In this document: piece by piece, positions 6,708 to 46,588 of the stretch
Position numbering within the stretch: the stretch's first letter is position 1
Layout of the letters: each line of letters begins with the position of its first letter
Source of the DNA: an uncultured Desulfobacterales bacterium
GTDB lineage: Bacteria; Desulfobacterota; DSM-4660; Desulfatiglandales; JALVZP01
Length of the DNA: 64,000 bases
NCBI GenBank assembly: GCA_964567535.1
Contig: CAZMNC010000125.1
Coordinates: 32,353-96,352 of the forward strand
Direction: 5' to 3'
The notes under the pieces: model-generated
What the model saw: the letters and a program-made list of their open reading frames with translations, nothing else
Databases searched by the model: none
What the model was told of the DNA's origin: nothing
Program-made: the position numbers and the translations under genes

Positions 6708-9365
6708 ATGAATAAAAAAAGGCCAAAAGAAATAATCACTACTCACATAAACGCAGATTTTGATGCATTATCCTCTATGCTTGCAGCCAAAAGGCTTTAC
6801 CCAAAAGCAGAATTAGTTTTCCCAGGATCTCAAGAAAAAGGAATAAAAAATTTTTTGCTCCATTCCGCTTCTTATCTATTCAATTTCCTAAGATTAAAAG
6901 AGATAGAGTTAGAAGAAATAAGACGCCTTATTATTGTAGATACAAGACAAAAAAGCAGGATAGGAAAATTCTCAGAACTAATAGAAAAAAAAGGAGTGGA
7001 AATCCATATATATGACCATCATCCAAAATCTGGGGATGATATAAAAGGGGATATAGAAATAATCAAAAGGGTGGGAGCAAACACAACTATAATGGTTCAA
7101 ATATTAAAACAAAGAGGAATTAATATAACCCCTGATGAAGCCACAATAATGTGTCTTGGCATTCATGAAGATACAGGCTCTTTCACATTTTCCTCTACCA
7201 CATCTGAAGACTACGAAGCTGCTGCTTGGCTTACAGCCCAAGGTGCAGATCATAATATTATATCTAATATGTTAACAAGAGAGCTGACAATAGAACAAAT
7301 ATCTCTGCTAAACGAACTTATCCAATCTGCCAAGAAATATAAGATAGATGGGATAGAAGTGGTAATATCCAAGATAATAAGAGATGAATATATAGGAGAC
7401 TTTGCTGTCCTGGTTCATAGATTAATGGATATGGACAATATAAATGTAATATTTGCTTTAGCCCAAATGGAAGACAAAATATATCTTGTAGCCAGAAGCA
7501 GAATAGATGCCGTAAATGCTGCTGATATTGTAAAAAGATTTGGTGGTGGAGGACACTCATTTGCGGCATCAGCTACTATAAAAGACATGACGATAAATCA
7601 AGCTGAAGATCTATTAATTGAAACATTAAGAAAACATATAAATTCCATTATAAAAAAGGCAAAAGATATAATGTCGTCACCTGTTATTAGTATATCTTCA
7701 AAAGAGACACTAAAGAAAGCTGAAGAGCTTATGAACAAATTCAGTATAAATGTACTACTTGTTATGGAAAAAGGCAAACTTATGGGCTACATCACAAGAC
7801 AAGTAGTAGATAAAGCCAGATTTTTTCATCTCGAACATATGAAAGTCAAAGAATACATGAACATAGAATATCCTATTATTCATCCAGATGCATCCATAAA
7901 AAAAGTGCAGGATATCATAATCAGAAATAGGGTAAGAGTAGTACCAGTGGTAAAAGATGAAAAAGTAGTTGGTGTCATAACACGAACAGATATACTAAAT
8001 TTTTTTATGGAAGAACCTCATTATTATACCCTAGTAGAAGAAAAAGAATATGCTTTTAAAAAAGATATGAAACGTCTTTTAAAAGAAAAATTGCCAGCGC
8101 AGATAATAAAGTTGCTCAAAGATTTTGGTAATATAGCAGACCTGATGGGGTATAATATCTATCTCGTGGGAGGATTTGTAAGGGATCTTATATTAAGAAG
8201 GAATAATTTAGATATAGATATTGTAGTAGAAGGGGATGGGATAAAATTTGCCAGAGAATTTGCCAGACATTTTGAGGTTAAAGTAAATATTCATAAAAGG
8301 TTTAGGACTGCTTATATTATATTTCCTGATGGATTTAAAATAGATGTGGCAACTGCAAGAATGGAATATTATGAATCTCCAGGTGCATTACCTATAGTAA
8401 AAAAAAGTTCATTAAAATTAGATTTATATAGACGTGATTTTACAATAAACACCCTTGCTATAAAATTAAACAAAAAGGAATTTGGTACTATTATAGATTA
8501 TTTTAATGGAATGCGAGACATAAAAGATAAAGTTATAAGAGTATTGCATAATCTCAGCTTTGTTGAAGATCCTTCCAGGATATTAAGGGCTATAAGATTC
8601 GAGCAACGATTTGGTTTTAGAATAGGTAAGCTCACTTTATCCTTGATAAAAAGTGCAATAAAAATAAATTGTTTTGATTTAATAAATGGAAAAAGACTAT
8701 TTCATGAACTTCAACTTATCCTTATGGAGGAAGATCCATTAATGGCAATGGAAAGAATGAATGAACTGGGAGTTCTTAAAGCACTTTCCCCGTTATTTAA
8801 ATGGACAAGAGAACATAAACGAATATTTGAAGATATAAAAAATACTATTGCATGGTATAATTTATTATTTCTTGAAGAATCTATAGCTTCTTGGAAGATC
8901 TACTGGCATGGTTTAACATATCATTTATATATGGAACAACTATCTACTTTGTATAAAAAATTTGAAATGAATGAAAAACCATATATAAGTATGTTTGATC
9001 AAAGAAAAGGACTTGATGATGTGATAAAAAAACTCATAATAAATCAACTTAGCAATTATGAAATATATAAAATACTGCATCAATATGATACAGAAACATT
9101 GCTTTTTATTATGGCAAAGGTAAAAAATAAAAAACTAAGAAAAATTATGTCTAATTATTTTACCAAGTTAAAACACACAAAACCTCAAATTACAGGCAAA
9201 GATCTTATAAAGATGGGATTTAAACCTGGGCCTATTTTTGGGAAAATCCTTGAAACAGTATTAGAAGCTCGAGCAAATGAGGTTGTTAAAAACAAAGAAG
9301 ATGAAATAAAATTAATTCAAGAAATATTCAAAGGAGAGATTAAAAATGAAAAACAGGGTTGTTAG
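6708..9365 (+). CDS. DHH phosphoesterase - CBS pair - poly(A) polymerase/CCA-adding nucleotidyltransferase fusion protein
   Basis: 885 aa. N-terminal DHH motifs (HINADFDALSS, IVDT, DHH at IYDHHP, GGGH). Two CBS-like repeats sit in the middle. The C-terminal class II nucleotidyltransferase head is GGFVRDLILRRNNLDIDIVV, with RDFTIN. Confidence 0.85.
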   Translation: MNKKRPKEIITTHINADFDALSSMLAAKRLYPKAELVFPGSQEKGIKNFLLHSASYLFNFLRLKEIELEEIRRLIIVDTRQKSRIGKFSELIEKKGVEIHIYDHHPKSGDDIKGDIEIIKRVGANTTIMVQILKQRGINITPDEATIMCLGIHEDTGSFTFSSTTSEDYEAAAWLTAQGADHNIISNMLTRELTIEQISLLNELIQSAKKYKIDGIEVVISKIIRDEYIGDFAVLVHRLMDMDNINVIFALAQMEDKIYLVARSRIDAVNAADIVKRFGGGGHSFAASATIKDMTINQAEDLLIETLRKHINSIIKKAKDIMSSPVISISSKETLKKAEELMNKFSINVLLVMEKGKLMGYITRQVVDKARFFHLEHMKVKEYMNIEYPIIHPDASIKKVQDIIIRNRVRVVPVVKDEKVVGVITRTDILNFFMEEPHYYTLVEEKEYAFKKDMKRLLKEKLPAQIIKLLKDFGNIADLMGYNIYLVGGFVRDLILRRNNLDIDIVVEGDGIKFAREFARHFEVKVNIHKRFRTAYIIFPDGFKIDVATARMEYYESPGALPIVKKSSLKLDLYRRDFTINTLAIKLNKKEFGTIIDYFNGMRDIKDKVIRVLHNLSFVEDPSRILRAIRFEQRFGFRIGKLTLSLIKSAIKINCFDLINGKRLFHELQLILMEEDPLMAMERMNELGVLKALSPLFKWTREHKRIFEDIKNTIAWYNLLFLEESIASWKIYWHGLTYHLYMEQLSTLYKKFEMNEKPYISMFDQRKGLDDVIKKLIINQLSNYEIYKILHQYDTETLLFIMAKVKNKKLRKIMSNYFTKLKHTKPQITGKDLIKMGFKPGPIFGKILETVLEARANEVVKNKEDEIKLIQEIFKGEIKNEKQGC

Positions 9366-14716: not shown

Positions 14717-15700
14717 ATGTCAAGAAAAATAAAAATAGGTAACATAATGTTAGAAAATGACTTAATTCTTGCTCCTATGGCAGGAATAACCAATTTGCCA
14801 TTTAGGCTTATAGCAAAAAAATTCGGAGCAGGCCTTGTAACAACGGAAATGATAAGCGCAAAAGGTCTTTGCCAAAATCAAAAAAAGACTTATGAGTACT
14901 TAAGACATACACCTGAAGAAGGGTTATTGTGTGCCCAAATATTTGGCTCAGAGCCAGAAGTTGTGGCTAATGCGGCACAAATAGCCATTGAATCAGGAGC
15001 AAGTATTATAGACATTAATATGGGTTGTCCTGTAAAAAAAGTGGTAAAAACAGGAGCGGGGGGAGCTCTTTTAAAAAATCTAAAACAAGCAGAAAGGATA
15101 ATGAAAACTGTAAAAAAAACATGCAATGTCCCTATTACAATAAAAATACGAGCAGGTTGGTCTTCTAATATTAAGACAGCCCTTGAAATTTCAAGAATTG
15201 CAAAGGAATGCGGAATAGATGCTATTACAATACACCCAAGATTTGTAACGCAAGGATTTTCAGGAAAAGCAAATTGGTCTATAATTTCAGAAATAAAAGA
15301 AAAATTAGATATCACAGTAATTGGCAATGGAGATATATTTGATGCAGAAGATGCCATTAACATGATAAAAAAAACAGGTTGTGATGCGGTAATGATTGCA
15401 AGAGGTGCAATAGGAAACCCATGGATATTTAGAGACATATTAGACCTTAAAAAAGGAAATATACCAAAAACACCAAGTTTATCAGAACGAAAAGAAATTA
15501 TGCTTAAGCATTTTTATCTTATAAAAGAATTTATAGGTGAAAAAAGGGCTATTAGATATATAAGAGGGATTTTTATATGGTATTCAAAAAATCTCCCTTA
15601 TAGCTCTTATTTTAGGGATAAAGTAACAAAAATTAGAAATGAAGATGAGCTTATGATGTTATTAAACAAATATTTTTTATATCTAAAAAAATTAAAATAA
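14717..15700 (+). CDS. dusB: tRNA-dihydrouridine synthase
   Basis: 327 aa. LAPMAGITNLPFR, DINMGCP and TIHPR motifs of the Dus family. Confidence 0.9.
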   Translation: MSRKIKIGNIMLENDLILAPMAGITNLPFRLIAKKFGAGLVTTEMISAKGLCQNQKKTYEYLRHTPEEGLLCAQIFGSEPEVVANAAQIAIESGASIIDINMGCPVKKVVKTGAGGALLKNLKQAERIMKTVKKTCNVPITIKIRAGWSSNIKTALEISRIAKECGIDAITIHPRFVTQGFSGKANWSIISEIKEKLDITVIGNGDIFDAEDAINMIKKTGCDAVMIARGAIGNPWIFRDILDLKKGNIPKTPSLSERKEIMLKHFYLIKEFIGEKRAIRYIRGIFIWYSKNLPYSSYFRDKVTKIRNEDELMMLLNKYFLYLKKLK

Positions 15701-15772
15701 AAAGATTCAATAATTTTTTGGTTGCCTGAGTATTTTAAGATTAAAAAGTTAAATTTAAAATTGGAGGAATGA

Positions 15773-17515
15773 ATGAAAGTAAAGGTTGCTAAAACAGCAG
15801 GTTTTTGTATGGGAGTTAGAAGAGCATTAGAACTGGTTCTCGCGAGATCATTAAAAGACTCAGGTCCAATATATACTTATGGACCTCTTATACATAACAA
15901 ACAAGTTGTAGCTTTATTAGAATCAAAAGGAATAAAAAGTATAAATAACATAAATGAACTTAATGGAATACAAAGGGGTACTATTGTTATAAGAGCACAC
16001 GGAATTCCACCAAATGAAAAGCAAGCAATAGTAAAAAAGGGTCTTAATATATTAGATGCAACATGTCCCAAAGTAGCAAAAGTACAGGGTATTATAAAAT
16101 ATTATACAGGAAAAGGATATTATGCCATTATAGTAGGTGATACAGGTCATGCAGAGGTTAAAGGGCTTGTTGGATACAGTAAAGGCCCTGTTTATGTAAT
16201 TCAGGGCGTAGAAGATGTAAAAAAACTTCCTGATATGGATAAGGTAATTGTTGTAGCTCAAACTACCCAAAATAAACTTAGATATAAAGAAATAACCTTG
16301 GCAATAAAGAAAAGATTTCCCGAAGCCAAGATATTTAATACTATATGTGATGCTACTAATCAAAGACAGGAAGAAGTAAAAAGATTGGCCAAGGAAACAG
16401 ATTGCATAGTTGTGGTAGGTGGCTATCATAGTGGTAACACGAAAAGACTTGTTCAAGTGGCAAAAGAAGCTGGTGCAAAGGTATTTCATGTGGAGACAGA
16501 AAAGGAATTGAAAAAAAATCAATTGAAAGACATGGATATAGTAGGCATAACAGCGGGGGCATCTACACCCAATTGGATAATAAAAACTGTAGTAAATGAA
16601 ATAGAAGAAATTATAAAAGGCAAATCATCTGGTATTATCCATATATTAAAGAATATTTCTAAATTTCTACTTATAAGTAATATAACAGTAGCACTTGGAG
16701 CTTCATCCCTATCTTATGCATATTTAGTCCTATCCAATTTAGAACCAGATATCACTTATCCTATTTTGAGTTTTCTATATGTTTATGCTATGTACGTACT
16801 TAATTTATTTTTGGACAAAGGTGCGAGTGCATATAATGATCCCCAAAGAGCCAAATTCCTAAACAAAAACAGAAAAATACTTCTTACAACAAGCATATCT
16901 TCTGTTTTAATTGGTTTGTTTCTTGCCTATGCTATGGGTTTAGCCGCATTTTTATTTATTGTGGGCTTGTGTATATTGGGACTAATATATAGTATGCCTG
17001 TATTTCCAAATAATATTCAAAAGAGATATGGATACAGTAGAATAAAAGATATTCCAGGATCAAGGAGTTTTTCAGAAGCTATTGGATGGGCTTCTGTGGT
17101 ATCTATATTTCCTATACTTGGTAATAATTGCAAATTCTCTCCCAATAACGTACTCGCAGCAATAGTAGTATTAATGATAAGCTATGCTAGATCTTTAATA
17201 TTTGATATATTTCAAACGCAAGGAGATCTTATTGCTGGAACTGAGACGTTGCCTATAACGATAGGAGAAAAAAAGACTCTTGTTATTATAAAATCTTTTC
17301 TATTTGCTGTCTCTTTAATGCTTATAGGAGGAGGTATATACAATCTATTCCCTTCATTTGCATATGTAATGATAATACCTATAATAGGATTATGCTTATG
17401 CATTGTTGCATATGAAAAGAGATGGCAATATATGGGAACAGATCTTGAAATGCTTGTAGAATCCAATTTTCTTCTTACAGGCTTTCTTGCTGTAATTTGG
17501 AATGCTTTAACATAA
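15773..17515 (+). CDS. ispH: 4-hydroxy-3-methylbut-2-enyl diphosphate reductase (IspH/LytB) fused to a C-terminal polytopic UbiA-like membrane domain
   Basis: Residues 1 to about 285 are a full IspH (GFCMGVRRA, ATCPKV, HSGNTKRL, GASTP). Residues from about 290 to 580 form about 8 hydrophobic helices. They include FDIFQTQGDLIAGTETLPITIG, which resembles the second Asp-rich motif of UbiA prenyltransferases. Confidence 0.85.
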   Translation: MKVKVAKTAGFCMGVRRALELVLARSLKDSGPIYTYGPLIHNKQVVALLESKGIKSINNINELNGIQRGTIVIRAHGIPPNEKQAIVKKGLNILDATCPKVAKVQGIIKYYTGKGYYAIIVGDTGHAEVKGLVGYSKGPVYVIQGVEDVKKLPDMDKVIVVAQTTQNKLRYKEITLAIKKRFPEAKIFNTICDATNQRQEEVKRLAKETDCIVVVGGYHSGNTKRLVQVAKEAGAKVFHVETEKELKKNQLKDMDIVGITAGASTPNWIIKTVVNEIEEIIKGKSSGIIHILKNISKFLLISNITVALGASSLSYAYLVLSNLEPDITYPILSFLYVYAMYVLNLFLDKGASAYNDPQRAKFLNKNRKILLTTSISSVLIGLFLAYAMGLAAFLFIVGLCILGLIYSMPVFPNNIQKRYGYSRIKDIPGSRSFSEAIGWASVVSIFPILGNNCKFSPNNVLAAIVVLMISYARSLIFDIFQTQGDLIAGTETLPITIGEKKTLVIIKSFLFAVSLMLIGGGIYNLFPSFAYVMIIPIIGLCLCIVAYEKRWQYMGTDLEMLVESNFLLTGFLAVIWNALT

Positions 17516-17639: not shown

Positions 17640-18599
17640 ATGGCAAATATAATATTAGTAACAGGAGCAGCAGGTTTTATTGGTTTTCACCTATGTAAAA
17701 AACTTCTAGACATGGGGGATATGGTTATTGGTGTAGATAACATGAATAATTACTATGATCCAAACCTAAAAAAAGCCAGACTTAATATACTAAAAAAATA
17801 TTCTAAGTTTATATTTTTTAAAGAAGATATACACAACTTTGATGGTCTTAAAAAGATATTTCAAGAATATAAAATAGAAGTAATATGTAATCTTGCTGCT
17901 CAAGCAGGGGTTAGATATTCTATAAAAGATCCTTTTTCTTATCAAAAGAGTAACATGGAAGGCTTTTTAAACATTATTGAGCTGGCAAGACATTTCAAAA
18001 TAAAAAATTTTATTTATGCCTCATCCTCATCAGTATATGGAAAGAACAAAAAAGTACCTTTTAGTGTTGAAGACAAAGTTGATAGCCCTGTCTCTCTTTA
18101 TGGTGCTACCAAAAAGGCAAATGAATTGATTGCTCACGCCTATCATCATTTATATAAAATTCCTTGTACAGGATTAAGATATTTTACAGTATATGGTCCA
18201 TGGGGAAGGCCAGATATGGCATACTTTTTATTTACTGATGCAATAATAAAAGAAAAACCTATAAAAGTGTTTAATTATGGTGATATGAAAAGGGATTTCA
18301 CATACATAGATGATATTATTGAAGGCACTATTGCTGCTATAAATAAAGTATTTCCTTTTGAAATATTTAATCTTGGAAATTCCAAGCCAGTAAGTTTAAT
18401 GAAATTCATAGCAACCTTAGAGCAACTATTGGGAAAAGAGGCAAAAAAAGAATTCTTACCTATACAACCAGGAGATGTACCAGAAACATATGCAGAAATA
18501 GGCAAATCTACCCAACTATTAGGATTTAAACCTCAAACCCCTTTAAACAAAGGTTTAGAAAAATTTGTAAATTGGTACAAAGAATATTATAGGGTATAA
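17640..18599 (+). CDS. NAD-dependent sugar-nucleotide epimerase (UDP-glucuronate 4-epimerase-like SDR)
   Basis: 319 aa. Rossmann motif GAAGFIGFH, catalytic YGATKKANE, and overall similarity to Cap1J/WbnF-type epimerases. Confidence 0.75.
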   Translation: MANIILVTGAAGFIGFHLCKKLLDMGDMVIGVDNMNNYYDPNLKKARLNILKKYSKFIFFKEDIHNFDGLKKIFQEYKIEVICNLAAQAGVRYSIKDPFSYQKSNMEGFLNIIELARHFKIKNFIYASSSSVYGKNKKVPFSVEDKVDSPVSLYGATKKANELIAHAYHHLYKIPCTGLRYFTVYGPWGRPDMAYFLFTDAIIKEKPIKVFNYGDMKRDFTYIDDIIEGTIAAINKVFPFEIFNLGNSKPVSLMKFIATLEQLLGKEAKKEFLPIQPGDVPETYAEIGKSTQLLGFKPQTPLNKGLEKFVNWYKEYYRV

Positions 18600-32915: not shown

Positions 32916-35900
32916 TTATAAAAAAGTATATTTATGTTCATAAAACATCCTTAAATTTTCTAAATATCTGTTGTAATTATAATAAGCCTTACACATAAAA
33001 TATTGTTGGTTTTGATATTTAGAAAACTTTGCTTCATTATCTAATTCCTTTAGATCATAACATATATTTTTAACTAATTCTTCATAACTATGATAAACAG
33101 TACGCAATTTTTTAAAATCAGCGGTAAAAAAATTAGGATTATATACAGCAAAACTAATACCACCACTAAAAATAGTCTCTACAAAATACCCATCTAAGCC
33201 CTCTCCAAAGGTCAACGACCATTTTGCTCGAGATATTAATTTTTTATAATCTTCATAATGAAGATTATTTATAATATGTATATCTAAATTTGGCAGTGCA
33301 GTTTGAATCAAATTTAGGATTTTCATCTTCATGAAGTGACTATCAGGAGAAACTATCATTATATCTTCTTTTTCTTTGTAATCTTTTTTATTATACCACT
33401 CAGGACTTACATAAGTAGAAAGTCTGTGTAATGGGATACCCAGTTTTTCTCTTACCTCTAAAGTAGAATATTGATCATGAGCCGTAGTACATGTTAAAAA
33501 TCCCATCTTTTTTAATTTCCTAAAAATTTCTTTATAATTTTGAGGCAATGCCTCTATATTTTGAAGCATTATATTAAAATGAATTTTCTTAATTTTTTTT
33601 AATTTAAAATAATAATTATTAAGAAATTCTATTGTGACTCTATCTATAACATGCAAAGGTATATGAATCATCAACTCTTTTAAATTAGAAAAATAAGAAA
33701 GAATCTGCGAAAATTTGTAAATATAATCTTTATTATGGAATTTAGTGTGTCTTATTAAATCAGGATCACCGGGAATGGTACAAATTATTGTTTCAGCATT
33801 ATGTATAGACTTTAATTTTTTTGTTTCCTTATAGATAGAATAAATAGACAAAATACCACCATTTACAATATCATAACCTGGGATAAGGAATACTATAAGT
33901 TTCTTAGTATCAGGGGGATAATTTTCTTTCAATATCTTATCTCTTTGTTCTTTCTGATATTCATTCTCTTCTAATTCCTTATAAATCTCGTATATTTCCT
34001 GAGCTTCTCTGGTAAAACCAAGACCAAGCATAATCTGGCCACAATTCCACATAATATCCAGATCATCAGGACATAATTTCATAGCCATTGATATACAGGA
34101 AAAAGCCTTTTCCCTGTCTTGTTTATGCCAATATATAGCTGCGAGATCATTATAGGCTTGTGCACATGATGGATCTGTCTTTATTGCTTGCTCAAAAAGG
34201 GAGATAGCCTTATCTATTTCTCCTTTTTCAAAAAGTTGCTCCCCTTTTTTACAAAAGAGCTTAGCTTTATCTTTGTGCTTAAAATCCTTAGCAAGATATC
34301 TTTTAAAACATAAACCTTGAGCTAAAGACAAAAATTTCAAAAAAGTCCATTTATCAGGATTGTTCACAAAATCTTTTGCTGAATTTTCAAGAACTATATC
34401 TGGCCAATCTTCCCATATTTTAGGATCCAATTTATATAGCTCTATCTTACCTTTCTTACCCAGAATAAAGTCTTTTATGCCTTCTACAAAGCCTTTTATA
34501 CACGCTGGACTTTTATTTAGCTGATCCCAATACGTTTTTTCTAAAATAGCAAAGCAATCAGAAATATTATTATATTGCACATTGCAATATAAAAAATTTC
34601 TTGGGGCATAATATGCGCTAATAGGGGTCTTAAGCCATTTACCAATAGATGCACCCCCTTTATGATAGACCACTGAACATGGATCATATAAAATAAACCA
34701 GCCATTGCTTTTTGCCCTTTTACAAAAATCGTTATCTTCAAAATAAAGGAAGTAATCTGTATTTAAAAATCCTATATCTTTAAAAACAGCACTTTTTATA
34801 AGAAGACTACACGCAGGAGCAAATTCCACAATTTTTAAAAAATCGTCATTATTATCCTCTTTGCCTACATCACTCGGGATATCCCCATCATACTGCACCT
34901 TTTTTTTATCCTCATAAAAATATATTTTGGAAGAAACAAGCCCTATTCTTTCATCTATGATTGATGACCGCACAAGCCTCGATAAGGCATTTTCATCTAC
35001 TACAGTGTCATTGTTTAATAGCCATACATAATCGGCTTTACATTTTAAAGCATATTTTATACCTATATTATTGGCACCTGAAAAGCCAAGATTTTCCTCA
35101 TTTTCTATAATAATTAATTCTTTTGTAAAATCCTTATCAGGAAAGACAAAATCTTTATTGCAAAAGATAATATGTTTACCCTTATCTTTTGCCCATTTTA
35201 TAATTTTGTCTGTAGAATCATCTTGTGAACCATTTTCTACTATAATTATTTGGAAATTATTATATTTAATATTGTAAATAGACTCCAAACAATGTAGAGT
35301 ATCATGTGCATTTTTATAATTTACTAAAATTATTGAAACCTTTTTATCTATTTCTTTGAACATATTTTCATACTTTTTAGATGGCTTAAACCAGGCTATT
35401 CCCCATAGTTCTTCAGGAACAGGAACATTTCCAAAACCATAGTGTTCTATAAGCTTGTATGCCAGTCTATCTGTGCTTTCTTGAACCAACCTATTAACTT
35501 CCTGATAAGGACTGGTTTGAAATGAAGCTTGTCCCTTATGATAAATAAAGACGTCAGTTGCCACTAACAATTTATATCCATATAATTGAAGTCTCCAGGA
35601 AAATTCCAAATCTTCGTTTCCCAAAAATAGACTCTCATCCAGAAGCCCTAATTTTTTAAAAACGTCCTTCTTTATGACAAGACAGAAGCCAGTTAGCAGT
35701 TTAGTTTCCACATCTTTATCTTTATAGTACTTATATATTTCTTCTGATATTTGGATAATACTAAAATCACCATTTGATATGGGAAGATCTTTTAAATATA
35801 AACTTAAACTCTGTTTACCTGAAGCGAAATTAGATATAGGACCAACAGCACCTATATCCTTGTTTTTAAAATGTGCTATTAATCTTTTATCCCAATCAGG

Positions 35901-37625
35901 AGTAACAGAAGTATCAGGATTAAGCAAAATTATATATTGTCCTTTTGCTAATTTAATTCCTTGATTACATGCCCTTGCAAAACCAAGATTTCCTTTATTA
36001 AAGATTGGTTTAATAACCAAAGGAAATCGTTTATGAAATGAGGTCAATATATCCTGTGTATCATCCTTAGAGTCATTATCAATGACCAATACTTCATAAG
36101 GTAGCTTAGTAAAGGACAATATACTATTCAAACAATTAGATATATGCTCAGATGAATTATAAGTCACTATAATTATACTGATACTATTTACCCTAATATC
36201 AGGCTTAATTTTTCCCTGCCATTTTTGATTTAATCTTTTCACATTTTCATATTCAAACTTATGTCTATTATTTGTTTGCCCTTCAAAATGATATAAGACA
36301 CTATTTGGACAATATATGACTTTATATCCCAGCTCTCTCACTTTAAAACACAGATCCACATCTTCATATCCATTGATAAATTTTTCATCAAATCTGCCAA
36401 CTTGATCGAAAACTCTTTTTGGAATTAACATACAGGCACCTGTAACTGCCTTATATTCTTTTACCTGGTTTACTTCTAAAATATTAGCTGATTTTTTATA
36501 ATATATATGATGAGGAGAAATAGGCTCAGGAAAATCACATATCACAACACCAGCATGTTGTATAGTCCCATCAGGAAAAAGCAATTTACTGCCTACGATC
36601 CCAACTTTTTTATCATTTTTTATAATATTTAGCATTTCTTCCAACCAGTTGGCCAAGGGTATAATATCATTATTTAAAAACAATAAATATTCACCCTTAG
36701 CGAGCTGTGCACCTTGGTTACATGCCTTTGCAAAACCAAAATTTTCTTTATTATTTATAATCTTTAAGTTCGGGTGATCTTTAACAAAATCTTCCAAAAA
36801 CTCTTTTGTCCCATCGGTAGAGCCATTATTTACTATGATAAGCTCAAACAAATTACTTGGTGTTACTTGATATAATGTGGAAATACAATTCTTGGTATAT
36901 TCCATTTTATTAAATACTGGAATAATGATAGACACCAAAGTCTTTGTTTTAATATGGGACATCCAGACCTTACCCTTAGGACGCACAAAATTTAATGCCT
37001 TTAAAAATTGTTCCTCAGAAGGTATTATTCCCAAAAACCATGTCAATTCTCTTAAAATAGGTTCAGGGTTTGATATAAACTTCTCATACCATATATGAAA
37101 ATTTTTCAATTTAGGATATTTTTTAATAAAATTTAATATTCGAGTTTCATAAATTTGAATCAATTTCAAACTGGAATCTATATCTTTACCATCTCTCTGT
37201 TTTAAAGATGCTGATATATTTTTAGGATTTCTGTGACATATAATAAAATAGGGGTTTTTCAGATATGGTAAAAAAAGCTCTATTGTCAAAACAGTTCTTG
37301 GATCTTTCCATCCCCATATACCAGAAGCCTCATTTTCAATAAGTCTTTTTATATACAAAGAAAATTTTTCTTTTTGAGCCAAAATAGCATCTTCTGAAGG
37401 TGGATTATCCCAACTACCACCAGCAGCCTTTAAGATTTCATCATTTAATTTTACAAACTCTAAATTTTCAAAGTGTCCCAAAGGATTAGACCAATGAGAG
37501 TCCATAAGATTTTTACCCATGTCAATACCTAAGATGTTTAAAATACCAGATATCATTGAAGTGCCAGATCTATGCATTCCCAAAACTATCACTGATTTTT
37601 TAATCTTATGAAAATCAGAAGACAT
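32916..37625 (-). CDS. Giant multidomain glycan-synthesis protein: N-terminal sulfotransferase + three GT2 glycosyltransferase modules + TPR repeats + unassigned C-terminal domain
   Basis: 1569 aa.
- Residues from about 10 to 215 carry GMHRSGTS and WKDPR (PAPS-binding loops of bacterial sulfotransferases).
- Three GT2 starts are present: SIIIPVFNK...NNGSTDGT, IIIVTYNS...DNDSKDDT, SIILVNYKN...ENGSQDDS.
- A TPR block lies around residues 1100-1210.
- The last 340 aa or so are unassigned. Confidence 0.85.
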   Translation of the reverse strand: MSSDFHKIKKSVIVLGMHRSGTSMISGILNILGIDMGKNLMDSHWSNPLGHFENLEFVKLNDEILKAAGGSWDNPPSEDAILAQKEKFSLYIKRLIENEASGIWGWKDPRTVLTIELFLPYLKNPYFIICHRNPKNISASLKQRDGKDIDSSLKLIQIYETRILNFIKKYPKLKNFHIWYEKFISNPEPILRELTWFLGIIPSEEQFLKALNFVRPKGKVWMSHIKTKTLVSIIIPVFNKMEYTKNCISTLYQVTPSNLFELIIVNNGSTDGTKEFLEDFVKDHPNLKIINNKENFGFAKACNQGAQLAKGEYLLFLNNDIIPLANWLEEMLNIIKNDKKVGIVGSKLLFPDGTIQHAGVVICDFPEPISPHHIYYKKSANILEVNQVKEYKAVTGACMLIPKRVFDQVGRFDEKFINGYEDVDLCFKVRELGYKVIYCPNSVLYHFEGQTNNRHKFEYENVKRLNQKWQGKIKPDIRVNSISIIIVTYNSSEHISNCLNSILSFTKLPYEVLVIDNDSKDDTQDILTSFHKRFPLVIKPIFNKGNLGFARACNQGIKLAKGQYIILLNPDTSVTPDWDKRLIAHFKNKDIGAVGPISNFASGKQSLSLYLKDLPISNGDFSIIQISEEIYKYYKDKDVETKLLTGFCLVIKKDVFKKLGLLDESLFLGNEDLEFSWRLQLYGYKLLVATDVFIYHKGQASFQTSPYQEVNRLVQESTDRLAYKLIEHYGFGNVPVPEELWGIAWFKPSKKYENMFKEIDKKVSIILVNYKNAHDTLHCLESIYNIKYNNFQIIIVENGSQDDSTDKIIKWAKDKGKHIIFCNKDFVFPDKDFTKELIIIENEENLGFSGANNIGIKYALKCKADYVWLLNNDTVVDENALSRLVRSSIIDERIGLVSSKIYFYEDKKKVQYDGDIPSDVGKEDNNDDFLKIVEFAPACSLLIKSAVFKDIGFLNTDYFLYFEDNDFCKRAKSNGWFILYDPCSVVYHKGGASIGKWLKTPISAYYAPRNFLYCNVQYNNISDCFAILEKTYWDQLNKSPACIKGFVEGIKDFILGKKGKIELYKLDPKIWEDWPDIVLENSAKDFVNNPDKWTFLKFLSLAQGLCFKRYLAKDFKHKDKAKLFCKKGEQLFEKGEIDKAISLFEQAIKTDPSCAQAYNDLAAIYWHKQDREKAFSCISMAMKLCPDDLDIMWNCGQIMLGLGFTREAQEIYEIYKELEENEYQKEQRDKILKENYPPDTKKLIVFLIPGYDIVNGGILSIYSIYKETKKLKSIHNAETIICTIPGDPDLIRHTKFHNKDYIYKFSQILSYFSNLKELMIHIPLHVIDRVTIEFLNNYYFKLKKIKKIHFNIMLQNIEALPQNYKEIFRKLKKMGFLTCTTAHDQYSTLEVREKLGIPLHRLSTYVSPEWYNKKDYKEKEDIMIVSPDSHFMKMKILNLIQTALPNLDIHIINNLHYEDYKKLISRAKWSLTFGEGLDGYFVETIFSGGISFAVYNPNFFTADFKKLRTVYHSYEELVKNICYDLKELDNEAKFSKYQNQQYFMCKAYYNYNRYLENLRMFYEHKYTFL

Positions 37626-39628: not shown

Positions 39629-40212
39629 ATAGATTCTCCTACATTTTCAGCTTCTTCTAACATTACTTTAAACTCTTTTAGACTCTTTAACTTTCCTTCA
39701 GGTAATAACTTCATTCTTCCATGAAGCAACATAATCAAACCCATATCTGCCATATCCAACGTATTTTTAAGTCCTTGAATAAAACCATTAGAAAATAGAT
39801 ATTCCCTTAATAGGGCTTTTTCATCTATTCTACCCCGTTTATATATTTGTTTCCAAAAAACTTTTCCAAAAGTAGATGTATTTTTACTGGATTCCATGCT
39901 TAGTTTTGTGGCATAATAAGCGAGACTGTGCATGATATCCATAACAGGGATACCACGCGGACATCTAACTTTACATGAATAGCAGGATGTGCACAGGAAA
40001 ATAGACTTGCTTTTTAAGATTGTTGCTTTTTTACCCGCCCTGAGGAGGGCGAATATTTTACGAGGAGGGTAATCCATGTGGTGTTTAAGGGGGCAGGATC
40101 CTGCACACATCCCGCACTGAATACACTTTTTTATTTCTTCAACAAATTCCACATCTTTAAATATATCTATAGCCACCGTGCTATTGTATTGTAGCATAGC
40201 GTCAATTACCAT
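39625..40212 (-). CDS. hdrC: Heterodisulfide reductase subunit C-like 4Fe-4S dicluster protein (soluble, no TM helices)
   Basis: 195 aa with CIQCGMCAGSCP and CTSCYSCKVRCP ferredoxin motifs. No hydrophobic helices are visible. Confidence 0.8.
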   Translation of the reverse strand: MVIDAMLQYNSTVAIDIFKDVEFVEEIKKCIQCGMCAGSCPLKHHMDYPPRKIFALLRAGKKATILKSKSIFLCTSCYSCKVRCPRGIPVMDIMHSLAYYATKLSMESSKNTSTFGKVFWKQIYKRGRIDEKALLREYLFSNGFIQGLKNTLDMADMGLIMLLHGRMKLLPEGKLKSLKEFKVMLEEAENVGESI

Positions 40213-42437
40213 CCTTTATATGGATTAGGTCCTATCTCTTCTATAGACTTCATAAAATCATCAATAATTTCTGGAATCCTCCAGTAATCTGCAATACCAA
40301 CTTCCTCAAACTTTACCCTTTCTGATTCAAGGGCAAGCCTCTCAAGAGTTTCTGAAATTTTGCTTAGTCTTGTATTTGCAAGCTCACTCCCTTTTACAAA
40401 ATGACATTGATAATCATCGCCATATCTACATCCAAGGAGAAGTATCCCATCTATCCCACGAGATAATGCATCAGCTATCCATATAAGATTCAGAGATCCC
40501 AGGCATCGTAAAGGTATAAAACGCACATATGGACTCCATTTAAATCTTTTTATGCCTGCCATATCAATAGCAGCATAAGCATCATTTTCACATACAAAAA
40601 CGATAACTCTTGGCTTTTCTTCATCTTCCTCAGGAACTTGTATCGCATTTATCATATTGCCTATTATTTGGACTGAATAGTTCTTAAAGGAAATTACCCT
40701 TTCTGGACATGCACCCATACATGTGCCACAACGCCTACATCTTGTAGGATTAAACAGAGGATTAGCCTTCTCATCTTCATTTATAGCGCCAAAAGGGCAT
40801 TCCTCTGTACATCTTTTACATTGGGTGCATCTTTGTAAATTTACCTCAGGATAACTTAAATCCCCTGACCTTGGATGAACTGCCATACCTTTCTCTGTCA
40901 TTTCTATACACTGAATAGCTTTCATTGCTGCCCCTGCTGCATCATCCATCACCCTTGCTGTCTCCATAGGCTTTCTAATACATCCTGCAGCATATATACC
41001 TGTTCTTCTTGTCTCATATGGAAAACAAATAAAATGAGAATCAGGGAATCCATATCTTAAGGTTGGAAGTTCTGGTCCTTGCCTATATTCCAAATTAAGC
41101 GTACGATTTGCATAAAAACCAGAATCGGGGGTAACCTCTATCATACCTTCATCATCAGCACCTTCTGTGCCTTCAGGGGCTTTTATTTTGGGCGTAACCT
41201 CTGGTTTTGAAGCAGGCACCATTCCAGTAGCTAAAACCAACATATCTAAATCTTCTATCCTTATCTTTTCTCCCAGAAATTCATCTTCAGCCTCAATTAT
41301 CAATTTTTCTCCTTGTTCTTCCACATTTGTAATAGTACCTCTTAAAAAGATATGACCATTTAACTGAGTCTTTTTATAAAATTCTTCTGCTTGACCTACT
41401 GTTCGCATATCCTTAAACAGGATATAACAAACAGCTTCTGGATCTTGCTCTTTTATATAAGCAGCTTGCTTAAGGGAGACTAAACAACATACAGAGGAAC
41501 AATATGGCAAATGTTCAGGGTCCCTTTGGCCTGCACATTGGATAAAAAGCACATTCTTAGGTACTTTACCATCTGATGGTCTTTTTACTCCTCCATTAGA
41601 TGCCATTTCTTCAAGTTCCCAATTGGTTATCACATTTTTAAATTTTCCATATCCAAACTTTTCAAGCTTATTTGCATCATAAGGCACCCATCCTGTTGCC
41701 TGAATTATTGCGCCCACTTTTTCACTTACAATACTATCATTAGTTTTAATACTAACTGAAAAAAGCCCAGGAGCTCCACTAATTTTTTCCACAGTTGCAG
41801 AGGTATATACTTTTATTTTAGAATTGTTATTAATCTCATCTATAAGTTCATTTAGTCCTGTATCATATAGATCCTCGTAAGGAGGAGCTATCTTTTTCTT
41901 CATCTTATTTAAAAATCCCCCTAATTTATCCTCTTTTTCCACTAAGATAGCTTGATATCCAGCCTTAGACACTTCTATTGCCGCTGTCATCCCTGCAAGC
42001 CCACCACCTACAATTAATATATCCTTTGAATACTCTTCTTCTGCTTTATAGGGTTCAGGGATATCCATATCTTTTACTTTTGCACAGCCAATTCTAATAT
42101 AATCCTCTGCAAGCATTTGAGTGTCCTCTTCCTTAGGAGGTTGACTCCATGCTACTTGCTCCCTGAGGTTTACTCTTTCTACTATTTTATCAGCTCCAAA
42201 ATTAAAAACATCTTGATTTACTCTTGGAGAACAAGCACATATTACAATGGTATTAATCTCCTCATTAGTTATATCTTGATTTATCAACTCAATCCCTTCG
42301 TGCCCACATAAAAAGGGATGCTCTTTACATATTGATATATCAAACTCTTCACCCACTAATTCTTTAATGGGCTCCACATCAATAGCATCTCCAATACCGC
42401 ATCCTGTGCAGATATAAACTCCAACCCTCTTTTCCAT
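40206..42437 (-). CDS. qmoB: Quinone-interacting membrane-bound oxidoreductase complex subunit B (HdrA-like flavoprotein with MvhD-like C-terminus)
   Basis: 743 aa. FAD-binding GGGLAGMTAA, ferredoxin motifs CTQCKRCTEECP / CRRCGTCMGACP, and a C-terminal MvhD-like domain. It sits directly after qmoA and aprBA. Confidence 0.9.
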   Translation of the reverse strand: MEKRVGVYICTGCGIGDAIDVEPIKELVGEEFDISICKEHPFLCGHEGIELINQDITNEEINTIVICACSPRVNQDVFNFGADKIVERVNLREQVAWSQPPKEEDTQMLAEDYIRIGCAKVKDMDIPEPYKAEEEYSKDILIVGGGLAGMTAAIEVSKAGYQAILVEKEDKLGGFLNKMKKKIAPPYEDLYDTGLNELIDEINNNSKIKVYTSATVEKISGAPGLFSVSIKTNDSIVSEKVGAIIQATGWVPYDANKLEKFGYGKFKNVITNWELEEMASNGGVKRPSDGKVPKNVLFIQCAGQRDPEHLPYCSSVCCLVSLKQAAYIKEQDPEAVCYILFKDMRTVGQAEEFYKKTQLNGHIFLRGTITNVEEQGEKLIIEAEDEFLGEKIRIEDLDMLVLATGMVPASKPEVTPKIKAPEGTEGADDEGMIEVTPDSGFYANRTLNLEYRQGPELPTLRYGFPDSHFICFPYETRRTGIYAAGCIRKPMETARVMDDAAGAAMKAIQCIEMTEKGMAVHPRSGDLSYPEVNLQRCTQCKRCTEECPFGAINEDEKANPLFNPTRCRRCGTCMGACPERVISFKNYSVQIIGNMINAIQVPEEDEEKPRVIVFVCENDAYAAIDMAGIKRFKWSPYVRFIPLRCLGSLNLIWIADALSRGIDGILLLGCRYGDDYQCHFVKGSELANTRLSKISETLERLALESERVKFEEVGIADYWRIPEIIDDFMKSIEEIGPNPYKGW

Positions 42438-42443
42438 TGCGCA

Positions 42444-43754
42444 TTACCTCCTGGAGATTGATTGAATAGCCTTAATGGCTGCTGCTGTGGCATCTTGAAC
42501 AGAAGTTGCCACATCTGTTGGTTTTCTTACACATCCGGCACCATATATACCACTTAATTTATTATCTCTTAATATGAAGCCAAATTTATCCTTAGGTACA
42601 TCAGGTGCCTCAATATTTATAGTGTTGGGAACCATACCTGTAGCAAGGACTACCATATCAAATATCAATTTGACCTGATTACCTGTATGTGTATCTTCTC
42701 CTTCTACAATAAGGTCCCCAGTATCTTCTTTTTCAGTAATAAATGCTATTTTACTTCTGATAAATTTTATCTTTTCATCCTCTTTAACTTTATTATAAAA
42801 ATCTTCCAATCTGTCTAATGCCCTAATATCAATGTAAAAAATAGTTACTTCTGAGTCTGGATGTTTTTCTCGTACATAAAGGGCCTGTTTCATAGATGCT
42901 AAACAACAAACCCCGGAACAATAAGGAAGATGATTCTCATCTCGTGAACCAGCACATTGAATAAATGCTATATTTTTTACCTCTTTATTGTCAGATGGCC
43001 TTAATATTCTTCCTCCCGTGGGTCCATTTGGAGATGCCAGTCTTTCCATCATTACATTAGTAACCACATTTTTATATTCGCCAAATCCATAATATTCTAT
43101 ATTTCTGGCATCATATGGTTCCCATCCTGCTGCCCATATAATAGCCCCTACCTTTAAATCAAACATCTTTTCTTTCATATCCAAATCTATTGCACCGTAT
43201 TCACAAACAGACTTACATTTTTCAGCTTCCTCTGTCCCTACAATAGAAGGATCCATCACATATCTCATGGGAAAAGCAAATTCATGAGGTAAATATATTG
43301 CCTTTATTTTGCTAAGCCCAAAATCAAAAGGATTATCTATCTCGGTCTCACATACATCTACACATTTTCCACAGCAAGTACATTTTTCATTTATATATCG
43401 TGGGGAAATTTTAACAGTCACATCATAGTTACCTTCTTCGCCTGTTATCTTTATTGGCTCAGCCATTGTAAAAAAACGAACTCTTGGATTCTGTTTCAAT
43501 CTCCTAAAATTTATCTCAAGCCCACAATTAGGGGGACAAAGCTTAGGAAAATAATGATAAAATTGGGTAACTTTTCCTCCTAAATAGGGTCTTTTCTCTA
43601 AAAGAATTACATTATAACCTGCCTCAGCAGCTTCTAATGCGGCAGTTACACCGCTCATCCCTCCACCTATTACCAATATATTCTGATTTATAGCCTCCAC
43701 GTCACCTTCCCTCCGCACGAATTTTTCATAAAGAATGGAAAATGCCCCAGGCAT
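42444..43754 (-). CDS. qmoA: Qmo complex subunit A (HdrA-like flavoprotein)
   Basis: 436 aa. FAD-binding VIGGGMSGVTAALEAAEAG and HdrA-like Cys motifs, in the canonical position downstream of aprA. Confidence 0.9.
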   Translation of the reverse strand: MPGAFSILYEKFVRREGDVEAINQNILVIGGGMSGVTAALEAAEAGYNVILLEKRPYLGGKVTQFYHYFPKLCPPNCGLEINFRRLKQNPRVRFFTMAEPIKITGEEGNYDVTVKISPRYINEKCTCCGKCVDVCETEIDNPFDFGLSKIKAIYLPHEFAFPMRYVMDPSIVGTEEAEKCKSVCEYGAIDLDMKEKMFDLKVGAIIWAAGWEPYDARNIEYYGFGEYKNVVTNVMMERLASPNGPTGGRILRPSDNKEVKNIAFIQCAGSRDENHLPYCSGVCCLASMKQALYVREKHPDSEVTIFYIDIRALDRLEDFYNKVKEDEKIKFIRSKIAFITEKEDTGDLIVEGEDTHTGNQVKLIFDMVVLATGMVPNTINIEAPDVPKDKFGFILRDNKLSGIYGAGCVRKPTDVATSVQDATAAAIKAIQSISRR

Positions 43755-43785
43755 AAAACCTGGGGCATCGGGCTATATCAACCAA

Positions 43786-45669
43786 TTATACTCCTGGCAT
43801 ATGCCATACATCCTTTTTCATCATCTCCCATTCGCCTGTATTGGGATCCCATTTGCAATTTACAAAACAATGCCAATTATCCTCATCCATTTTTGGAAAA
43901 TCTGCTCTAAAGTAGTATCCCGGCCATCTTGTCTCTTCTCTAAAGAGGACACTTCTAATATGAGCCTCTGCTTGCCACATTCTATGTATATTTTCCCAGC
44001 ATCTCATAAGTTCGTGTAAATTACGAGCAGCCAATTTCTCACTATCCTCTTTTAAGAAAACAAATAACTCTAATGCCCTATCCAACAATGGTTTACTTGT
44101 CTTAAATGCAGATGTAACACCACCCACATATTCATCCATTATTTTCTGTAGCCGATCCATAAACTGACGCCACAATATATAATTGGGATTAACAGTAGGA
44201 TCAGTTGTAAGGTCTTTAAACTGCTCAAATCTGTCTATTGGAGCAAGAACCTTTTTCTTAAGTTCTTCTATTTTAGCAGCATCAATTTTAGGTTCTTCAC
44301 CCTTTTCAATTATATATTTTATTGCAGATTTACCAGCAATTCTTCCCTCTGCATGCGAGCCTGAAGAGAATTTATGACTTGATGCACCAGATGCATCTCC
44401 TGCGGCAAATAAACCATCTACAGTGGTCATATTTGCATATCCCCATTTGTAAGGAGTTGGTATATCCTCCGGACCACTCACCCATGCACCAGATGCACCT
44501 GAATGAGATCCAATAAAATAGGGTTCACATGCTGCAATCTCTGAAGGTTTTTCTTCAGGTTTAATATTTTGAGCTGCCCATAGATGTGCCTGAGATATAG
44601 TCATATCTAAGAAATCTTCCCACGCCTCTGACTCCAATTCCTTCATCTTTTTCTTAAATGCCTTTGGATCATCCTTATACTCTTCCGCAAGCTTTGCTAT
44701 TGCTTCATGGGTTTGCATATATAAAGGCCCAAAACCTGCCTCTACATCCAGCATACCAAGGTAGTTCCTCAAATTAGCTGGTATAGGTTTTGAGAGTCCA
44801 TAAGGCGCCCAATTTTTAAGCTCTTCTTTTCTAACCGCCATATATTCCCCACCACCTGCACTAACCGCTCTTGCCTTAAACAGTAAGAACCATGCACCTA
44901 CAGGACCATAAGCATCCTTAAATCTAACAGGAATAAACCTTACTTCCTGACAAGTCATTTCACAACCTGCTTTTATAGTAAAATACGCACTTGAACCCGT
45001 ATTAAATGGTGGATACCAAGAACGACCGAAACCTTCGCCTACTGATCTTGGACGAAATACGTGAACTGCTCCACCAGCAGCAATTATAGTTGCTTTAGCT
45101 TTAAATACATAAAATTTATTTTCTCTTACACTAAAGCCCACAGCACCAAGACATTTATTTCCTTCAACTATAGGCTCGCAAATAAATACCCTTTCAAATA
45201 TCTCACCACCTGCATCTGCAATAGCATTTCTGGCAGCCTCTGCAACTATTATTTTATAAGATTCACCATTGATCATAAGCTGCCATCTACCTTCATGTAC
45301 ATATTTACCATTTTCATCTGTCCATATCCTAAGACCCCATTTCTCAAACAAATGGACAGTAGAATCTACATGACGAGCAATATTAAACACCAGATCCTCT
45401 CTGGATATGCCCATAAGATCCTGACGGACATATCTCACGTAATCCTCTGGGGTATTATCTCCATCTCTTATACCCAAATACTGATTTATTGCAGAAAGAC
45501 CCATTGCAACAGCACCGCTTCTTTCTGGAACAGCCTTATCCACCATTGTTACTTTCAAACCGTGTTTTTTTGCCCAATATGCTGCTTCTGTTGCAGCACC
45601 ACATGCTGCCATTCCTCCGCCTATTATCAGGAGGTCAGTATTGACTTCTACTGTTTCAAAATTTGCCAT
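43786..45669 (-). CDS. aprA: Adenylylsulfate (APS) reductase alpha subunit
   Basis: 627 aa. FAD-binding IIGGGMAACGAA, overall AprA similarity, and adjacency to aprB. Confidence 0.95.
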   Translation of the reverse strand: MANFETVEVNTDLLIIGGGMAACGAATEAAYWAKKHGLKVTMVDKAVPERSGAVAMGLSAINQYLGIRDGDNTPEDYVRYVRQDLMGISREDLVFNIARHVDSTVHLFEKWGLRIWTDENGKYVHEGRWQLMINGESYKIIVAEAARNAIADAGGEIFERVFICEPIVEGNKCLGAVGFSVRENKFYVFKAKATIIAAGGAVHVFRPRSVGEGFGRSWYPPFNTGSSAYFTIKAGCEMTCQEVRFIPVRFKDAYGPVGAWFLLFKARAVSAGGGEYMAVRKEELKNWAPYGLSKPIPANLRNYLGMLDVEAGFGPLYMQTHEAIAKLAEEYKDDPKAFKKKMKELESEAWEDFLDMTISQAHLWAAQNIKPEEKPSEIAACEPYFIGSHSGASGAWVSGPEDIPTPYKWGYANMTTVDGLFAAGDASGASSHKFSSGSHAEGRIAGKSAIKYIIEKGEEPKIDAAKIEELKKKVLAPIDRFEQFKDLTTDPTVNPNYILWRQFMDRLQKIMDEYVGGVTSAFKTSKPLLDRALELFVFLKEDSEKLAARNLHELMRCWENIHRMWQAEAHIRSVLFREETRWPGYYFRADFPKMDEDNWHCFVNCKWDPNTGEWEMMKKDVWHMPGV

Positions 45670-45682
45670 TTTTTACCCCTCC

Positions 45683-46126
45683 TTATGAAGATTTATAAGT
45701 TGGTACAGCATCTATTCCCAAGGATGCAGGCTCTGTTGCCAATGCTTCGCTATTAAGATCATCATGTGTTGGAAAACCACCTATTGGATCTGCAGTGCCT
45801 TCATCTGTGGTCCTGATAGGAAATTTAAATCTCTTTATTGTCCCATCTCTAAATTTTACTGTCCACATTATATCCCTTGATCCACGAAGTGGAACCACAC
45901 TTGCACCTAAAGGAATAAAATCTGCATAACCACGCACATCAATTGCCTGTTGAGGGCAAATCTTTACACAACACTGACATTCCCAGCACATAGAAGGATC
46001 ACGATTATAAGCCTTCATCTTTTCTGTATCTAATACCATAAGATCATTGGGACAGATGTACATACAAGCAGTTTTATCCTGGCCTTTGCAACCATCACAT
46101 TTTTCAGCAATCACATAACTTGGCAT
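45683..46126 (-). CDS. aprB: Adenylylsulfate (APS) reductase beta subunit
   Basis: 147 aa. MPSYVIAEKCDGCKG... start and two 4Fe-4S motifs (CMYICPNDLM, CWECQCCVKICP), which are canonical for AprB. Confidence 0.95.
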   Translation of the reverse strand: MPSYVIAEKCDGCKGQDKTACMYICPNDLMVLDTEKMKAYNRDPSMCWECQCCVKICPQQAIDVRGYADFIPLGASVVPLRGSRDIMWTVKFRDGTIKRFKFPIRTTDEGTADPIGGFPTHDDLNSEALATEPASLGIDAVPTYKSS

Positions 46127-46132
46127 CTTTTT

Positions 46133-46212
46133 ACCTCCTTTTTTATTTTTTCTTTAATTATTACCACGCCAATAATAAAATTTTACAGATTTTATCTCAC
46201 CTCCTTTTTTAT
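46133..46212 (-). repeat. 14-nt direct repeat ATAAAAAAGGAGGT (minus-strand sense) duplicated in the aprB leader
   Basis: The plus-strand sequence ACCTCCTTTTTTAT occurs at 46133-46146, where it is the aprB Shine-Dalgarno, and again at 46199-46212. The second copy is followed by no canonical start codon at normal spacing. Confidence 0.6.
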
Positions 46213-46215
46213 TAG

Positions 46216-46572: not shown

Positions 46573-46588
46573 TTTAAACCTCCTATTT

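Follow-up and report, generated by a model that had tools for sequence, protein, structure and literature searches.

Proteins in which an N-terminal IspH is joined to a C-terminal UbiA-like membrane domain were described by Rao, O'Dowd, Li, Wang, and Oldfield in 2015 (Chem Sci 6:6813; PMC4746011), who reported 47 such "Rosetta stone" IspH-UbiA proteins, primarily from Desulfobacterales, all from sulfate-reducing anaerobes, and including cultured species. The UbiA-like domain of these proteins was assigned to the CDD class PT_UbiA_5, of unknown function, was modeled by Phyre2 with nine transmembrane (TM) helices, and was reported to contain "two DXXXD repeats"; the fusions also formed their own IspH cluster in a sequence-similarity network (PMC4746011). 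It was proposed that the UbiA-like domain brings IspH to the membrane, where IspH would serve as a local source of isopentenyl diphosphate (IPP) and dimethylallyl diphosphate (DMAPP) (PMC4746011). Here, we examined a 64-kb stretch of contig CAZMNC010000125.1 from an uncultured Desulfobacterales bacterium (the window), which carries an ispH::ubiA-like fusion gene (15773..17515, + strand). This gene is almost certainly a member of the published family, with which it shares the N-terminal IspH, the C-terminal nine-TM UbiA-like domain, and an origin among sulfate-reducing Desulfobacterales and their relatives. The window protein and its close relatives differ from the published description in lacking the DXXXD repeats and in having instead Q481-x3-D485 and an N-x3-D motif followed by an insertion.

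Two further groups of known proteins serve for comparison. Enzymes of the UbiA superfamily carry a canonical first motif, NDxxDxxxD, and second motif, DxxxD, on loops that are cytoplasmic in the solved structures; AfUbiA coordinates two Mg2+ ions via N68, D72, D198, and D202, and mutation of the Asp equivalent to position 481 of the window protein abolishes the function of EcMenA (Huang et al., PMC4106721). The IspH-RPS1 proteins of Clostridia and Fusobacteria (NF000907) likewise have an N-terminal IspH in a two-part protein. NF000907 was found to match the window protein over model positions 1-279 of 671 at 318 bits versus a whole-protein cut-off of 624, the difference being that the partner in the window is a membrane UbiA-like domain and that the protein has no S1 domain.

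The fusion gene and its relatives

The fusion gene is a single open reading frame (ORF) with an ATG start and 580 codons plus a stop, preceded by a GGAGG ribosome-binding site (15763..15767, +), which was read from the sequence and lies at a 5-nucleotide spacing to the ATG. A full-length protein search revealed that the deduced protein is 100% identical to the public protein P0184, encoded on a 105.8-kb contig and carrying the name "IspH" only. The two domains are joined by a linker, KGKSSG (residues 282-287; 16616..16633, +), which is non-helical in the AlphaFold model (pLDDT, the predicted local distance difference test score, below 50 at residues 284-286), and inspection of the sequence at the domain junction revealed no homopolymer longer than four. 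Species-representative genomes were scanned with an alignment of the membrane domain, and of the 236 genomes with a relative the 80 best loci were retained. The IspH and UbiA-like parts were found to share one stop-free frame in all 80 of these loci, with deduced proteins mostly of 562-592 amino acids. Similarly, the best 120 protein matches listed (window protein included) have both Pfam domains and about 558-585 amino acids, with the sole exception of P0017, which is truncated by its contig. Matches of about 370 residues were considered as a possible split or stand-alone form and rejected, as their gene calls begin at an internal M-VVVGG of IspH; the shorter matches to the family are fragments. 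In no relative was a stop or frameshift detected between the two parts, and the original prediction of a complete IspH running in frame into a polytopic membrane part was borne out by PF02401 and TIGR00216 scores above their cut-offs and by the membrane helices of the AlphaFold model within one ORF. Because the fusion is conserved across genomes, an assembly artifact is very unlikely, and we conclude that the fusion is real.

The taxonomic survey was extended by an exhaustive profile search, which returned 411 clusters at 50% identity (E ≤ 1e-30), with most of the best 150 cluster representatives at 560-600 amino acids; many of the full-length members share 50-79% identity with the window protein. 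The implied novelty of an IspH-prenyltransferase fusion was thus not upheld: with 47 proteins published in 2015 and relatives in 236 genomes and 411 clusters, the fusion is already known, and the window copy is an ordinary family member. Most of the best loci (75 of 80) are labeled Desulfobacteraceae, Desulfobacterales, Desulfatiglandales, Thermodesulfobacteriota, or "Deltaproteobacteria." The other five (L015, L017, L021, L049, and L075) are on contigs of 4-13 kb from metagenome-assembled genomes labeled Anaerolineales, Gammaproteobacteria, Bacteroidales, or Pseudomonadota, and they probably reflect misbinning or outdated labels, not a spread beyond Desulfobacterota. In the public records, full-length members such as P0189, P0195, P0224, and P0238 (576-581 amino acids) are annotated only as "4-hydroxy-3-methylbut-2-enyl diphosphate reductase," and a few fragments are annotated "UbiA family prenyltransferase" or "4-hydroxybenzoate polyprenyltransferase." A stand-alone UbiA-like protein (P0034, 23% identity) was also inspected; its gene is surrounded by Rieske, flavoprotein, and methyltransferase genes, a context that was uninformative on the fusion family.

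IspH half

Residues 1-281 (15773..16615, +) form an IspH/LytB domain, that is, a 4Fe-4S 4-hydroxy-3-methylbut-2-enyl diphosphate (HMBPP) reductase. PF02401 (LYTB) matched residues 3-278 at 311.5 bits versus a cut-off of 24.5, and the cut-offs of the NCBIfam models were also exceeded, with TIGR00216 (ispH) at 297 bits versus 187.85 and NF002187 at 295 bits versus 276. In the AlphaFold model this half is an alpha/beta trefoil to residue 281, and Foldseek matched it to 3dnf (E 5e-22, 41% identity) and to E. coli IspH structures with target-normalized template modeling scores (TM-scores) of 0.83-0.87. The three Fe-S ligands were found to be conserved as follows: (i) Cys12 (codon 15806..15808, +) is Cys in all 76 loci that cover the position; (ii) Cys98 (16064..16066, +) is Cys in 79 of the 81 sequences of the locus set, the two without it being truncated at the N terminus, as well as in 107/107 and 119/119 sequences of the wider-family and subclade sets defined below; and (iii) Cys192 (16346..16348, +) is Cys in 81/81, 107/107, and 119/119. 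Furthermore, H41, H126, E128, T164/T165, S220, N222, and S264, which we take to be the equivalents of E. coli H41, H124, E126, T167, S225, N227, and S269, are invariant in the 81 aligned sequences wherever covered. Judged by these residues, the N-terminal 281 residues look like a complete IspH that is catalytically competent for the conversion of HMBPP to IPP and DMAPP.

Fold and topology of the membrane half

The remainder of the protein, residues 288-580 (16634..17512, +), is a UbiA-superfamily membrane domain. PF01040 (UbiA) matched residues 332-551 at 40.5 bits, above its gathering score of 34.2, so that the predicted UbiA similarity of the C-terminal domain withstood the profile search; scored by itself, the C-terminal half reached 42.1 bits, and all 30 family members scanned matched the model, the scores obtained with it running from 40.5 to 42.7 bits. 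An AlphaFold model of the fusion, built on 58 sequences (mean pLDDT 85.6, predicted template modeling score 0.77), displayed about nine membrane helices within residues 288-579, with low confidence confined to the linker and two motif loops (349-354 and 484-489). The model helices were used to assign topology, as a Kyte-Doolittle scan had merged and missed helices. Based on the model helices, Lys plus Arg number 10 on the inside loops versus 1 on the outside loops; this count, together with the cytoplasmic Fe-S domain at the N terminus, places the domain in an N-in topology, with IspH and the two motif loops (motif 1 following TM2, motif 2 following TM6) on the cytoplasmic face.

For the C-terminal half, Foldseek returned UbiA structures at a probability of 1.00, including 6m31 (MjDGGGPS, an archaeal digeranylgeranylglyceryl phosphate synthase), 4od4 (ApUbiA, TM-score 0.72), 4tq3/4tq4 (AfUbiA), and 8djk (UBIAD1). 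The best structural matches to residues ~288-580 were MjDGGGPS (6m31), ApUbiA (4od4/4od5), and AfUbiA (4tq3-4tq6), which like the window protein have cytoplasmic motif loops after TM2 and TM6, and from which the window protein differs in its 12-19% identity, a Gln for the first Asp of DxxxD, an insertion in motif 1, and the fusion to IspH. The likeness to DGGGPS is one of fold and motif register only: the NCBIfam DGGGPS models scored 23-30 bits on the window protein versus cut-offs of 269-353, among them the equivalogs NF009522 (30.4 versus 353) and NF009521 (27.8 versus 296). A weak match was also observed to a membrane phosphoribosyltransferase of UbiA fold (8j8j/8j8k; E 0.04-0.08, TM-score 0.45-0.49), and this fold match provides no evidence that the window domain uses phosphoribosyl pyrophosphate. 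An earlier family profile that retained about 45 IspH residues had returned only IspH chains from the PDB and was set aside.

Conservation of the membrane domain was then examined among 119 full-length relatives with at least 50% identity to the window protein (the subclade), for which the median identity to the window is 59% over the IspH half and 48% over the membrane half. At least 95% conservation was found at 51 positions of the membrane domain, of which 23 are polar or charged and many lie in cytoplasmic loops; these polar or charged positions include N344, D348, D356, K425, D426, and S430 as well as R473, Q483, D485, E491, and T492. One such loop, RIKDIPGSRS (residues 423-432; 17039..17068, +), connects TM4 to TM5, and its K425, D426, P428, G429, and S430 are each at least 95% conserved. 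This strong constraint argues against a passive anchor.

Aspartate-rich motifs and division of the family

The two peptides that had been quoted as UbiA-like motifs were located as NLFLDKGASAYND at residues 344-356 (16802-16840) and FDIFQTQGDLIAGTETLPITIG at residues 477-498 (17201-17266). To place them against the canonical motifs, profiles were aligned by hhalign. With E. coli UbiA as the only partner, the membrane-domain profile aligned over a meaningless 14 columns; the usable alignment, obtained after PDB fragments were added, spans 194 columns at a probability of 16%, and its motif 2 register is gapless and agrees by eye.

The motif 1 region, N344-LFL-D348-KGASAYN-D356-P-Q358-R359, lies at the end of TM2 (16802..16849, +). 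In the hhalign alignment N344 and D348 fall on the canonical Asn and first Asp of motif 1, a 6-residue insertion follows, and D356-P-(E/D)358-R359, with Gln at 358 in the window, aligns with the canonical x-x-D-R. The canonical NDxxDxxxD is not present, as the window reads N344-L-F-L-D348-K-G-A-S352: (i) the Asp of "ND" is Leu in the window and Arg in most relatives; and (ii) the last Asp is either replaced by Ser352 or shifted to D356/Q358 by the insertion, whose conserved GASAYN comes after D348-K349. Position 358, which pairs with the last Asp of the canonical motif, is Gln (codon 16844-16846) in the window and in L001, and Glu in 86 and Asp in 21 of the 119 subclade members, while N344, D348, D356, and P357 are nearly invariant in the subclade. 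The first motif is thus degenerate, as had been proposed, with N344 and D348 kept and the last Asp lost or displaced.

The motif 2 region, R473-SLIF-D478-IF-Q481-TQG-D485-LIAG-TETLP-ITIG, lies at the end of TM6 (17189..17266, +). The segment R473-SLIFDIFQTQGDLIAGTETLP-I495 aligns without gaps to REIVKDFEDMEGDKKEGVISLPI of MjDGGGPS, a 23-residue register that includes the shared R, D, G-D, G, and (S/T)-L-P, and through MjDGGGPS it maps to D191-x3-D195 of E. coli UbiA and D198-x3-D202 of AfUbiA. In this register the canonical DxxxD has its first Asp replaced by Q481 (codon 17213-17215) and its second kept as D485, so the window reads Q481-T-Q-G-D485; Q483, G484, D485, G489, E491, T492, P494, and G498 are nearly invariant. 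The second motif was recognizable, as originally predicted, but the full D-x-x-D-x-x-x-D to which it had been likened is interrupted by Gln481 in place of the middle Asp. Compared with AfUbiA, three of the four Mg2+ ligands (N68, D72, and D202) are retained as N344, D348, and D485.

To determine how widely the Gln is shared, the subclade was compared with 107 full-length representatives of the wider family that are 33-47% identical to the window protein. Position 481 was found to be Asp in 73 and Glu in 12 of the wider-family representatives, 80 of which have at least one literal DxxxD in the membrane domain, versus Gln in 103, Arg in 9, and Asp in 2 of the 119 subclade members, 115 of which have no literal DxxxD there. 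At position 485 all but one of the wider-family representatives (106/107) have Asp, and across the proteins compared (P0035-P0302) the residues around position 481 stay invariant while 481 itself varies. On these alignments the family falls into two groups, one with the canonical DxxxD and a large one with QxxxD, to which the window belongs. In view of these counts, the "two DXXXD repeats" of Rao et al. fit the wider family and not the window subclade, and the missing DxxxD looks like a difference of the subclade rather than a reason to exclude the window from the IspH-UbiA family.

Gene neighborhood

The gene upstream of the fusion in the window is dusB, encoding tRNA-dihydrouridine synthase B (14717..15700, +; TIGR00737 at 371 bits versus 293). 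In the set of 81 loci, the gene adjoining the fusion upstream is a same-strand dusB homolog in 73, and the gene adjoining it downstream, likewise on the same strand, encodes a GT2 glycosyltransferase of about 275 amino acids in 72, which is virtually all of the loci whose downstream flank reaches 1 kb. Both neighbors usually share a few nucleotides with the fusion gene at the stop and start codons (e.g., L081:9009-12558), and no other neighbor was found in more than 26 of the 81 loci. Most relatives therefore have a tight dusB, ispH::ubiA, GT2 operon, a synteny that is absent from the account of Rao et al. (2015). Exceptions are the window itself, L001 (the genome relative closest to it), and L086 (71% identical), all of which keep dusB and lack the GT2 gene. 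Since the GT2 proteins of the relatives reached no NCBIfam cut-off, their specificity cannot be named. Downstream of the fusion in the window is a GalE-like NAD-dependent epimerase (17640..18599), followed further downstream by an HhH-GPD glycosylase, a Zn-dependent alcohol dehydrogenase, and a rhomboid protease; further upstream, on the opposite strand, are a methyltransferase and two glycosyltransferases.

Possible function of the UbiA-like domain

The locus as a whole is best explained by an IspH-UbiA family member with a tethered IspH and a working UbiA-like site, a reading to which we assign a probability of about 0.7. In such a protein the IspH part would act as a membrane-tethered HMBPP reductase of the methylerythritol phosphate (MEP) pathway, and the UbiA-like pocket would be a working site that binds Mg2+ and diphosphate through a modified metal site of N344, D348, Q481, and D485, perhaps helped by D356 and D478. 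The pocket would transfer a prenyl or related group to an acceptor, and the fusion would set a source of C5 diphosphates beside a membrane step that consumes isoprenoids. In most relatives, outside the close lineage of the window, the translationally coupled GT2 would probably act on the same lipid. With Gln for the first Asp of motif 2, the metal site of the window subclade is noncanonical, so its chemistry or substrate may differ from that of classical UbiA enzymes. The tethering of IPP/DMAPP production to membrane prenyl transfer, as first suggested for this gene, is plausible on this analysis. That the membrane domain is an active transferase rather than a scaffold is about as likely as not.

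Several observations weigh against a working UbiA-like site. IspH gives C5 units, most UbiA enzymes take longer chains, and direct channeling is not obvious. The membrane domain of the window contains no literal DxxxD, and at the position of AfUbiA D198 the window protein carries Gln, as do 103 of its 119 close relatives. A clean family profile of the membrane domain found no UbiA structure in the PDB by sequence, even at E ≤ 10. All named NCBIfam UbiA subfamilies scored far below their cut-offs on the domain, and for this reason neither donor nor acceptor can be inferred. Finally, no IspH-UbiA protein is yet known to be active, and expression of the full-length protein from three species failed (PMC4746011).

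The strongest of the rival explanations is that the UbiA-like domain of the subclade is catalytically dead and, as a mere anchor or scaffold, keeps IspH attached to the cytoplasmic side of the membrane, e.g., near electron donors or downstream prenyl-consuming enzymes. This would fit the loss of a Mg2+-ligand Asp to Q481 in 103/119 members and of any literal DxxxD in 115/119, as well as the Ser or displaced residue at the third Asp of motif 1; mutation of the equivalent Asp abolishes function in EcMenA (PMC4106721), and a role in membrane localization was also raised by Rao et al. (PMC4746011). Nonetheless, a simple anchor would have no need of 51 positions of at least 95% conservation, among which are 23 polar or charged residues that lie in many cases in the motif and TM4-TM5 loops, and N344, D348, and D485 are kept. 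The replacement itself need not be disabling, as Gln can ligate Mg2+ through its carbonyl oxygen by general chemistry. The tight operon with GT2 in 72 relatives, furthermore, suggests a shared substrate. Overall, we consider a dead anchor unlikely.

A second possibility is that the UbiA-like domain of the subclade is not a classical prenyl-diphosphate transferase and has instead a new membrane activity, for example in building an unknown glycosylated isoprenoid lipid. The Gln in place of a Mg2+-ligand Asp, the GASAYN insertion, and the GT2 coupling in most members are the grounds for this proposal, and its substrates could be the C5 products of IspH, or a phosphate instead of a diphosphate; we regard it as improbable. 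The domain could alternatively act as a sensor, tying IspH activity to the isoprenoid status of the membrane.

The fusion might also be a specialized paralog that works with GT2 on a glycosylated isoprenoid lipid, the housekeeping IspH being a separate stand-alone enzyme. The GT2 gene directly downstream on the same strand in 72/81 loci, usually with an overlap of a few nucleotides, and the separate IspH cluster of the fusions in the network of Rao et al. (PMC4746011) are consistent with such a role. However, the scores of the IspH half exceed equivalog cut-offs and none of its catalytic residues is missing; the fusion persists without GT2 in the window, L001, and L086; and the partner dusB is a housekeeping gene. 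In addition, neither the 64-kb window nor any of the related 20-kb loci was found to contain a second IspH-like sequence, although this is weak evidence. A specialized paralog is thus decidedly improbable. The remaining alternative, a sequencing or assembly error that merged adjacent ispH and ubiA-like genes, has virtually no probability left and is already refuted by cross-genome conservation, given the uninterrupted architecture in 80/80 independent loci and in the best 120 listed protein matches (apart from the contig-truncated P0017), the junction without a homopolymer run, and the same fusion in cultured species (PMC4746011).

What this analysis adds to the published family is the Gln-for-Asp subclade, the motif 1 insertion, and the dusB/GT2 operon, which are leads on the function of the UbiA half and not a new kind of system. 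The remaining value of the locus is as a pointer to the ten-year-old question of what the UbiA-like half does in IspH-UbiA. The operon nominates a glycosyltransferase partner for co-expression and a glycosylated lipid to seek, and the strong constraint on three of four Mg2+ ligands and on many polar loop residues could be useful for the design of experiments. Labeling these proteins as IspH alone hides a membrane enzyme domain in hundreds of Desulfobacterota genomes.

Host and other genes of the window

A sulfate-reduction cluster was identified at 40206-47950 (- strand), encoding a QmoB-like protein (FlpD plus 4Fe-4S plus flavoprotein), a QmoA-like protein, an AprA-like flavoprotein, and Sat (ATP sulfurylase), with a guanine-plus-cytosine content of 0.37-0.40 versus about 0.31 elsewhere in the window. 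Based on these Sat, AprA-like, and QmoA/QmoB-like genes, the host is a dissimilatory sulfate reducer. No other isoprenoid genes were found among 26 of the 36 window ORFs of at least 250 amino acids plus two shorter neighbors, and no tRNA or Rfam elements were found in the window. Two large proteins of unusual domain content were observed in passing. The first (32916-37625, -) has 1568 amino acids, with an N-terminal sulfotransferase domain, three GT2 domains, and TPR repeats. The second (6708-9365, +) has 885 amino acids and combines a DHH plus DHHA1 phosphoesterase, CBS pairs, and a poly(A) polymerase/CCA-adding head domain; its gene lies directly upstream of a Trp/Tyr-type tRNA synthetase gene.

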